Shown here one piece after another: positions 1,704-2,030 of a stretch of DNA of 15,984 bases. The stretch spans positions 1 to 15,984 of the forward strand of contig JAWBON010000028.1 of the NCBI GenBank assembly GCA_038826135.1. The letters run 5' to 3'. Within the stretch, counting starts at the first letter, position 1. The number at the start of each line of letters is the position of its first letter. The stretch comes from Candidatus Odinarchaeota archaeon. Lineage in GTDB: Archaea; Asgardarchaeota; Odinarchaeia; Odinarchaeales; Odinarchaeaceae. The notes beneath the pieces are model-generated. The model ran no database searches. It saw nothing but the letters and a program-made list of their open reading frames with translations, and was not told the origin of the DNA. A program made the translations under genes and the position numbers.

Positions 1704-1772
1704 AACCCTGCTCATTTCCTTTTTTATTACACTATAATTAATAAAGAGTTTAGTTTATTCACCGGAATATAA

Positions 1773-1784
1773 AAAAATTTATAT
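1773..1784 (+). promoter_or_regulatory. Putative BRE/TATA promoter of the tRNA-Gln gene
   Basis: AAAAATTTATAT ending about 35 nt upstream of the mature tRNA 5' end, consistent with a short 5' leader. Confidence 0.65.
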
Positions 1785-1856
1785 TTTGAAGAATTTATTC
1801 GGTATTCTAGGTTAGCGTAGCCCGGTGGTGTAGTGGCCAAGCATCAGGGACTCTGG

Positions 1857-1889
1857 TCAGCTCATAACTTTGATTACGAGCTGGTGGAA
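1857..1889 (+). other. tRNA intron 1 (33 nt, canonical position 37/38)
   Basis: Inner helix CAGCTC(1858-63)/GAGCTG(1878-83); bulges G1855-G1856-T1857 and A1888-A1889-A1890; relaxed central helix CUCU/GUGG (1 C-G, 2 U-G, 1 mismatch). Confidence 0.9.
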
Positions 1890-1899
1890 ATCCTTGGAC

Positions 1900-1926
1900 A
1901 GTGGTTAGTTAAAATACCACCCTGAA
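1900..1926 (+). other. tRNA intron 2 (27 nt, non-canonical position 48/49, variable region/T-stem junction)
   Basis: Three registers give the same mature tRNA, but the best BHB is at 1900-1926: inner helix GTGGT/ACCAC, central UUGG(1894-97)/CCUG(1921-24) with 3 of 4 pairs, bulges ACA and AAA, outer helix TCC(1891-93)/GGA(1928-30). Confidence 0.85.
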
Positions 1927-1937
1927 AGGAGTTCGAA

Positions 1938-1964
1938 GTATTAAGCTATATGCTTAAACGGAAA
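1938..1964 (+). other. tRNA intron 3 (27 nt, non-canonical position 59/60, T loop)
   Basis: Central helix UUCG(1932-35)/CGGA(1959-62) fully paired including one G-U; bulges AAG and AAT; inner hairpin TTAAGC-TATAT-GCTTAA; the outer helix is the T stem. Confidence 0.9.
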
Positions 1965-2030
1965 TCTCCTCCGGGCTACCATTTTATATTTCAGCATCAT
2001 GGTTTTCAAAATGGTTTAAGAGGTTATGAG

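Follow-up and report, generated by a model that had tools for sequence, protein, structure and literature searches.

Thermoproteales have tRNAs with up to three introns each and with relaxed splice motifs, and the co-evolution of these features with (αβ)2 endonucleases is established (PMC4033280, PMC4090602). A specificity loop in the endonuclease confers cleavage of relaxed motifs at non-standard positions (PMC3241643), and such a loop has been reported in Asgard EndA, including that of Odinarchaeota LCB_4 (PMC5829648). For pre-tRNA-Ile(UAU) of Cyanidioschyzon merolae, which has three introns, the splicing order was shown experimentally and tracks the BHB free energies (Soma et al. 2013, PMC3728597). 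According to a statement in that paper, the BHB of the last intron forms in some archaea only after removal of the others. According to a preprint of October 2026, Asgard tRNA genes can be heavily interrupted, annotators overlook many of them, and introns were gained repeatedly on terminal branches at BHB-competent sites.

We analysed a tRNA-Gln(CUG) gene at positions 1819-1981 (+) of the window (the whole 15,984-nt stretch of DNA under study), which has three BHB introns at 37/38, 48/49 and 59/60. It resembles Thermoproteales tRNAs in its number of introns (up to three there), in their variable-region and T-loop positions and in the mixture of strict and relaxed motifs, and its host has a predicted (αβ)2 EndA with a specificity loop, as in the Thermoproteales system. 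A further likeness, as far as that statement in PMC3728597 goes, is to cases in Thermoproteales of adjacent introns with interdependent or mutually exclusive BHBs. However, the host is an Odinarchaeon (Asgard) and not a crenarchaeon, the introns are without paralogues in the genome, unlike the transposing intron families of Thermoproteales, and the BHBs overlap as neighbours and are not nested. With the C. merolae pre-tRNA the gene shares the presence of three BHB introns, and here it is the middle one that has the weakest BHB. In contrast, C. merolae is a eukaryote whose introns lie in the D stem, at 37/38 and in the T loop and have independent BHBs, whereas the BHBs here share bases; moreover, the order in C. 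merolae was seen experimentally, whereas the gene here is known from sequence and models.

Like the Asgard genes of the preprint, this gene has several introns, with BHB boundaries preferred; the terminal gains without an identified donor that are described there are a pattern that intron 3 fits. The preprint centres on Jordiarchaeia and Atabeyarchaeia and mentions neither Odinarchaeia, nor the tRNA-Gln(CUG) gene, nor splicing order. Both overlapping BHBs and an ordered splicing of tRNAs with several introns have been described before. On present evidence, the locus is a further example of a known phenomenon, a multi-intron archaeal tRNA with base-sharing splice motifs and a broad-specificity endonuclease.

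Structure of the tRNA-Gln(CUG) gene

Neither ARAGORN nor Rfam called the gene in the unspliced window, and it was also missed in an Rfam scan of the whole host genome (G000; 1.26 Mb, ~38% G+C). In line with an Odinarchaeal host, one protein encoded in the window shares 77-78% identity with proteins from Candidatus Odinarchaeia MAGs. When positions 1857-1889, 1900-1926 and 1938-1964 were cut out by hand, the resulting 76-nt RNA was called as tRNA-Gln(ctg) by ARAGORN. This RNA folds into a canonical cloverleaf, with an acceptor stem of 7 bp, the three arms (D, anticodon and T), U33, a T-loop reading TTCGAAT and an encoded CCA. Every partially spliced form that was given to ARAGORN yielded no call; only the fully spliced form was recognized. 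Independently of the hand splicing, we carried out a BHB-guided splice search, in which BHB-like candidates were enumerated, at most three of them were combined and an ARAGORN-valid cloverleaf was required. The top solution consisted of the same three introns. The practical value of these results lies in annotation, the tRNA-Gln(CUG) gene being invisible to ARAGORN and Rfam.

Exon 1 (1819..1856, +) comprises the acceptor 5' strand, the D arm, AGGGA (1846-50) and the loop CUCUGG with the anticodon CUG (1853-55). It is followed by intron 1 (1857..1889, +; 33 nt) at the canonical position 37/38, which uses the anticodon stem as its outer helix h; its h' pairs CAGCTC (1858-63) with GAGCTG (1878-83), and its helix H is weak (C:G, U:G, C.U, U:G). 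Exon 2 (1890..1899, +) consists of A38, TCCTT (1891-95) as the 3' strand of the anticodon stem and the 4-nt variable loop GGAC (1896-99). At the junction of variable loop and T stem (48/49) lies intron 2 (1900..1926, +; 27 nt), and beyond it exon 3 (1927..1937, +) provides the T-stem 5' strand AGGAG (1927-31) and the T-loop sequence TTCGAA (1932-37). The T loop is interrupted at 59/60 by intron 3 (1938..1964, +; 27 nt), which has a perfect BHB with the T stem as h, an H of TTCG (1932-35) with CGGA (1959-62) and an h' of TTAAGC (1941-46) with GCTTAA (1952-57), a 6-bp palindrome. Exon 4 (1965..1981, +) contains U60, CTCCT (1966-70), the acceptor 3' strand (1971-77), the discriminator A and CCA (1979-81). 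The T-run that we read straight after CCA (1982..1985, +) is likely an archaeal terminator. A BRE/TATA-like A/T-rich element, AAAAAAATTTATAT (1771..1784, +), is located 35-48 nt upstream of the mature 5' end. It is near letter-identical upstream of three congeneric orthologues, the flanks of which have diverged, and it may act as the promoter.

A second register of intron 1, with H = UCUG/UGGA and consequently U38, was thermodynamically better. We rejected it, yet not on energetic grounds: orthologues differ at position 1857 but not in the exons, and the change of T1857 to A in one congener (L004) is consistent with an intronic base. This register is also contradicted by a distant Asgard tRNA-Gln(CUG) (L014), the contiguous loop CUCUGGA of which supports the chosen boundary. 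A mechanically called ORF of 254 aa (1950-2714, +) has its ATG inside intron 3. The downstream gene probably starts at a later ATG near 2030, behind GAGGT at ~2021-2025.

Conservation and intron history

The exons are identical among four congeneric species with the exception of one D-loop base, while the introns diverge. In the three congeneric orthologues (L002, L003 and L004, each from position 1501), introns 1 and 2 are present and intron 3 is absent. The pair T1905:A1916 in h' of intron 2 is replaced by C:G in all three, which is a compensatory change. An intron at 48/49 is found in both Gln isoacceptor genes of all four species of the genus. Its H pair between position 44 and the intron covaries between the paralogues, being G:C in the CUG and A:T in the UUG genes. 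The outer helix behaves differently: in tRNA-Gln(UUG) it comprises 2 bp only in all four species, and at outer pair 39:52 the CUG genes have U:A, whereas every one of the four UUG genes has C.A. This pair does not covary, because base 39 tracks its anticodon-stem partner 31.

In the CUG genes, the exon bases TCC and GGA of this helix are invariant within the genus, and outside it the 48/49 intron is absent. In the distant Asgard tRNA-Gln(CUG), the anticodon arm (...UCCUU) and the variable loop GGAC are the same, but the T stem is different and a 48/49 intron is lacking. A sister-genus tRNA-Gln(UUG) has CC/GG at 40-41/50-51 despite having no variable-loop intron. As judged from these sequences, both the TCC and the GGA strand are fixed by cloverleaf constraints.

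Neither the three congeners nor the UUG paralogue nor the sister-genus gene has intron 3, which points to a recent gain on the terminal branch. Among the loci compared, which also included L036-L038, intron 3 is present only in the host genome and in a near-identical contig from a hot spring. Since the congeners keep intron 2 while lacking intron 3, intron 2 cannot depend on intron 3. We found no paralogues or donor copies of introns 1-3 in the host genome, so intron transposition within the genome is unsupported. One match to an intron, on contig C13, lies inside a protein-coding gene and was rejected as a chance match. The gene offers a clean comparative case, with a terminal-branch gain at 59/60 beside a 48/49 intron conserved genus-wide in both Gln isoacceptors, and could serve to study the origins of Asgard tRNA introns and the motif elements that are truly required.

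Among Logan contigs of three hot-spring runs, one 203-nt contig corresponds to the unspliced gene with all three introns and is uninformative about expression and splicing; the same runs also contain tRNA-Gln contigs from other organisms, and none of the contigs shows a spliced junction. The sister-genus tRNA-Gln(UUG) gene (locus L010 on contig C12 of genome G004, gene at 1501-1586 of the locus) has neither an anticodon-loop nor a variable-loop intron. Its D loop carries an insertion of ~10 nt (...GTGGCCAATAATGGCTAAGCAT...), and this pattern indicates that the positions of tRNA-Gln introns differ between genera of one order.

Overlapping splice motifs and the splicing endonuclease

According to the initial annotation, TCC (1891..1893, +; tRNA positions 39-41) pairs with GGA (1928..1930, +; positions 50-52) as the outer helix of the intron-2 BHB, joining the anticodon stem's 3' strand to the 5' strand of the T stem. 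Our analysis bears this out: the helix h can be drawn as T1891:A1930, C1892:G1929 and C1893:G1928 in precisely the register that a strict hBHBh' motif calls for. It is followed by H, formed by TTGG (1894-97) and CCTG (1921-24) with one T:G pair, a T.T mismatch and two G:C pairs. The bulges are ACA (1898-1900) and AAA (1925-27), the latter including the final two intron bases (1925-26), with predicted cuts after C1899 and A1926, and h' pairs GTGGT (1901-05) with ACCAC (1916-20). Intron 2 also fits the relaxed HBh' class, as H, B1 and h' are present.

The bases of TCC and GGA likewise belong to the outer helices of introns 1 (anticodon stem) and 3 (T stem), as had been claimed. With bulges in register throughout, H has four of four pairs in intron 3 and three of four in introns 1 (C.U mismatch) and 2 (U.U mismatch). 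Flanking helices of at least 2 bp are present on both sides of every intron (h of 5-7 bp and h' of 6 bp in intron 1, 3 and 5 bp in intron 2, 5 bp and, after a 1-nt bulge, 6 bp in intron 3). The strict drawings have 1891-95 in common between BHB1 and BHB2 (5 nt) and 1927-30 between BHB2 and BHB3 (4 nt), so that not all of them can form at once. The proposed mutual exclusivity of the three strict motifs is confirmed. The motifs are overlapping neighbours and not nested, and local sequence suffices to draw all three on the primary transcript, which is not the arrangement of an obligate nested order. Helix h of intron 2 can form only with the anticodon and T stems open. UCCUU (1891-1895) is also fully complementary to AAGGA (1926-1930), that is, the last base of intron 2 and T-stem positions 49-52. 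In the isolated intron-2 region, this 5-bp UCCUU/AAGGA helix was the local MFE structure, in which the 3' splice site is buried and not bulged.

We consider it rather probable that the gene encodes a functional three-intron tRNA-Gln(CUG) whose introns are recognized through local motifs, with TCC/GGA incidental and with neither an obligate order nor a checkpoint. Each intron would most likely be recognized through its own local core of H, 3-nt bulge and h', and the enzyme would be the host (αβ)2 endonuclease with its crenarchaeal-type specificity loop. Introns 1 and 3 would present cloverleaf-compatible BHBs on the anticodon and T stems, and intron 2 would belong to the variable-loop class, which is abundant in the host genome and generally goes without an outer helix. 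We infer that the gene is actually spliced, in this mode of recognition and without strict order.

Two genes of the EndA family (PF01974) are present in the host genome. The product of the α-subunit gene matches EndA α of Aeropyrum pernix (3P1Z_B; 2.7e-29) over an alignment that spans the crenarchaeal specificity loop (CSL/L1), with a Lys aligned to the loop-lysine region (RKPK vs EKPR). By inspection, the EndA-family protein encoded on contig C45 has no His at the catalytic position, and its sequence marks it as the structural β partner. The host endonuclease is predicted to be of the (αβ)2 type with a crenarchaeal-type specificity loop, and the loop suggests that it tolerates relaxed HBh'/BHL motifs. 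The α gene is split over two contig ends (C48:1-420, −, and C72:2-274, +) with an overlap of ~40 aa; this is a break in the assembly and not a split gene.

We surveyed the tRNAs of the host genome in regions anchored on Rfam or ARAGORN matches and resolved 22 of them, which are part of its tRNA genes. Positions 41:50, 40:51 and 39:52 are fully complementary in three of these 22 (Gln-CUG, Thr-UGU and Lys-CUU). Thr-UGU and Lys-CUU are without a 48/49 intron; theirs are located at 46/47, where pairing of 39-41 with 50-52 is out of BHB register. When anticodon-stem 3' strands and T-stem 5' strands were permuted all against all, 6% of the combinations contained a 3-bp run and 19% one of at least 2 bp. 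The TCC/GGA complementarity is not above chance. Approximately ten other variable-loop introns have outer helices of 0-1 bp, i.e. the relaxed HBh' type. They lie at 45/46 in Ala-GGC, Val-UAC and Glu-CUC (where the position was resolved) and at 46/47 in Thr-CGU, Thr-GGU, Thr-UGU, Lys-UUU and Lys-CUU, and are also found in Glu-UUC and Pro-GGG. Their H helices comprise 3-4 bp (four of four in all but Pro-GGG) and their h' helices 3-10 bp. H of these introns draws on bases 41-43 of the anticodon stem, so that a local clash with this stem comes with the class as a whole and does not set tRNA-Gln(CUG) apart.

The claim that the precursor must switch conformation presupposes an outer helix that is required. 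The approximately ten variable-loop introns with 0-1 bp speak against this, and it is also countered by the UUG paralogue with its 2 bp and by the predicted broad-specificity (αβ)2 endonuclease. The TCC/GGA outer helix is probably dispensable. It would be an incidental by-product of two stems fixed by the cloverleaf, giving at most marginal and transient help. As a counterpoint, H of intron 2 is weaker (three of four pairs, one of them G:U) than H of the other variable-loop introns (four of four), and the 3-bp outer helix could compensate for this. Both Gln 48/49 introns have an h of at least 2 bp, as against 0-1 bp in the 45/46 and 46/47 introns, and H and h add up to six pairs in intron 2 of Gln-CUG and likewise in the UUG paralogue.

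Folding models and alternative explanations

We modelled the precursors by nearest-neighbour folding, which takes no account of protein, Mg2+, modifications or tertiary structure and gets the D arm wrong even for the mature tRNA; the modelled values set bounds and do not decide the question. The predicted probability of TCC/GGA pairing in the full precursor was 0.002 at 37 °C and 0.02 at 75 °C. At 75 °C, it rose to 0.11-0.13 after removal of intron 1 and was 0.16 in the mature tRNA. The latter value shows TCC/GGA to be no more than a weak alternative hairpin that the naked RNA adopts close to its melting point. In the full precursor, the strict hBHBh' motif with TCC/GGA cost 9.9 kcal/mol at 37 °C and 7.7 kcal/mol at 75 °C, and the intron-2 motif without the outer helix cost 8.9 and 6.7 kcal/mol, respectively. 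The outer helix is a net cost of ~1 kcal/mol in these models, because two stems must open. At 75 °C, the intron-2 motif became 1.1 kcal/mol cheaper when intron 1 had been removed beforehand and 0.1 kcal/mol cheaper when intron 3 had. Constrained folding of the intermediates had been proposed as a check on the refolding idea, and it did not favour it, TCC/GGA being the costlier form and earlier loss of introns 1 or 3 changing the cost by at most 1.1 kcal/mol. Co-transcriptional folding of 5' prefixes revealed no window that favoured TCC/GGA. The local BHB free energies were −7.4 kcal/mol for intron 1 (−13.2 in the alternative register), −4.7 for intron 2 and −9.3 for intron 3. Intron 2 has the weakest local BHB of the three and, by the correlation of Soma et al. 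2013 (PMC3728597), would be the last to be spliced.

The alternative put forward in the initial annotation is that intron 2 is cut only in a non-cloverleaf conformer with TCC/GGA paired, so that splicing is ordered and depends on refolding, perhaps as a kinetic or thermal checkpoint. A strict order, if true, would amount to a simple way of controlling tRNA maturation, encoded in RNA structure, in the closest prokaryotic relatives of eukaryotes. We regard this model as unlikely. It draws on the exact BHB register of TCC/GGA, on the overlaps of 5 and 4 nt between the strict motifs, on the mismatch in H of intron 2, which could make extra pairs matter, and on the h of at least 2 bp in both 48/49 introns. 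The increase of TCC/GGA pairing and the drop in motif cost upon removal of intron 1 also agree with it, as does the weakest local free energy of BHB2, given the energy-correlated order documented in C. merolae. However, the 3-bp helix is at chance level, its 39:52 pair is not conserved in the UUG paralogue, and the approximately ten variable-loop introns manage with 0-1 bp. The predicted type of the endonuclease, with its broad specificity, likewise argues against a required helix, which makes the modelled motif costlier and not cheaper, and the congeners have intron 2 without intron 3. In addition, helices of 3-5 bp would exchange fast at ~75 °C, which makes a kinetic trap unlikely.

In its bolder form, the proposal is that an obligate, temperature-sensitive order arising from the overlapping BHBs gates the supply of tRNA-Gln, with intron 3 modulating it by delaying the T stem; this we judge very improbable. 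Being probably dispensable and no more frequent than expected by chance, the TCC/GGA helix provides no evidence for a special splicing checkpoint. Of the original interpretation, the mutual exclusivity of the strict motifs is supported; the forced refolding and the checkpoint are not. Under recognition of local motifs, the clash with the top of the anticodon stem (here also with the T stem) would be the generic one of variable-loop introns, and it would probably be resolved by helix breathing at ~70-80 °C and capture by the enzyme, not by programmed refolding. A kinetic preference for splicing introns 1 and 3 before intron 2 is plausible but would be neither obligatory nor a checkpoint.

In the MFE structure of every modelled precursor containing intron 2, bases 1824-31 of the 5' exon pair with 1914-21 and D-loop bases 1834-39 pair with 1902-07, which takes the place of the local hairpin of intron 2 and of the D stem; these bases do not vary. 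It is highly improbable that this long-range helix (G6-U13, 1824-1831, with 1914-1921, plus 1834-39 with 1902-07) governs intron 2 and keeps the D arm and acceptor unfolded until the intron is removed. At 37 °C, the ViennaRNA MFE lay ~19 kcal/mol below a hand-built cloverleaf-plus-BHB structure for all precursors with intron 2, and the helix recurs in the folds of two or three orthologues. However, it is a model prediction, and its bases are either invariant or show changes (T:A to C:G) that the local h' hairpin accounts for better. Furthermore, the MFE structure of L002 at 37 °C is a cloverleaf-like fold with the local hairpin, and the GGUGG/CCACC pairing is short and G/C-biased, in a model that misfolds the D arm of the mature tRNA as well.

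A decaying pseudogene with three unspliced insertions, to which the silence of the standard gene finders might point, is extremely unlikely: the joined exons, which include an encoded CCA, fold into a perfect cloverleaf, and they are conserved in four species whose introns differ and show compensatory changes. In addition, the promoter-like element is conserved, BHB motifs occur at all three insertions, the gene is the sole CUG isoacceptor found, and most tRNA genes of the genome are similarly interrupted.

The host genome is very intron-rich, with most tRNA genes being 95-170 nt long (example loci: C60:6106-6223, C7:2246-2380, C5:24110-24236, C11:25651-25782 and C46:7116-7220). Approximately 12 of the 22 resolved genes contain a variable-loop intron at 45/46, 46/47 or 48/49, and introns at 53/54 are present in four genes (Gly-CCC, Gly-GCC, Gly-UCC and Asp-GUC). 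ARAGORN mislabels several of the tRNA genes, for instance as 'tRNA-Stop(tta)' or 'tRNA-SeC'. Nearly every tRNA gene of the genome has an encoded CCA.
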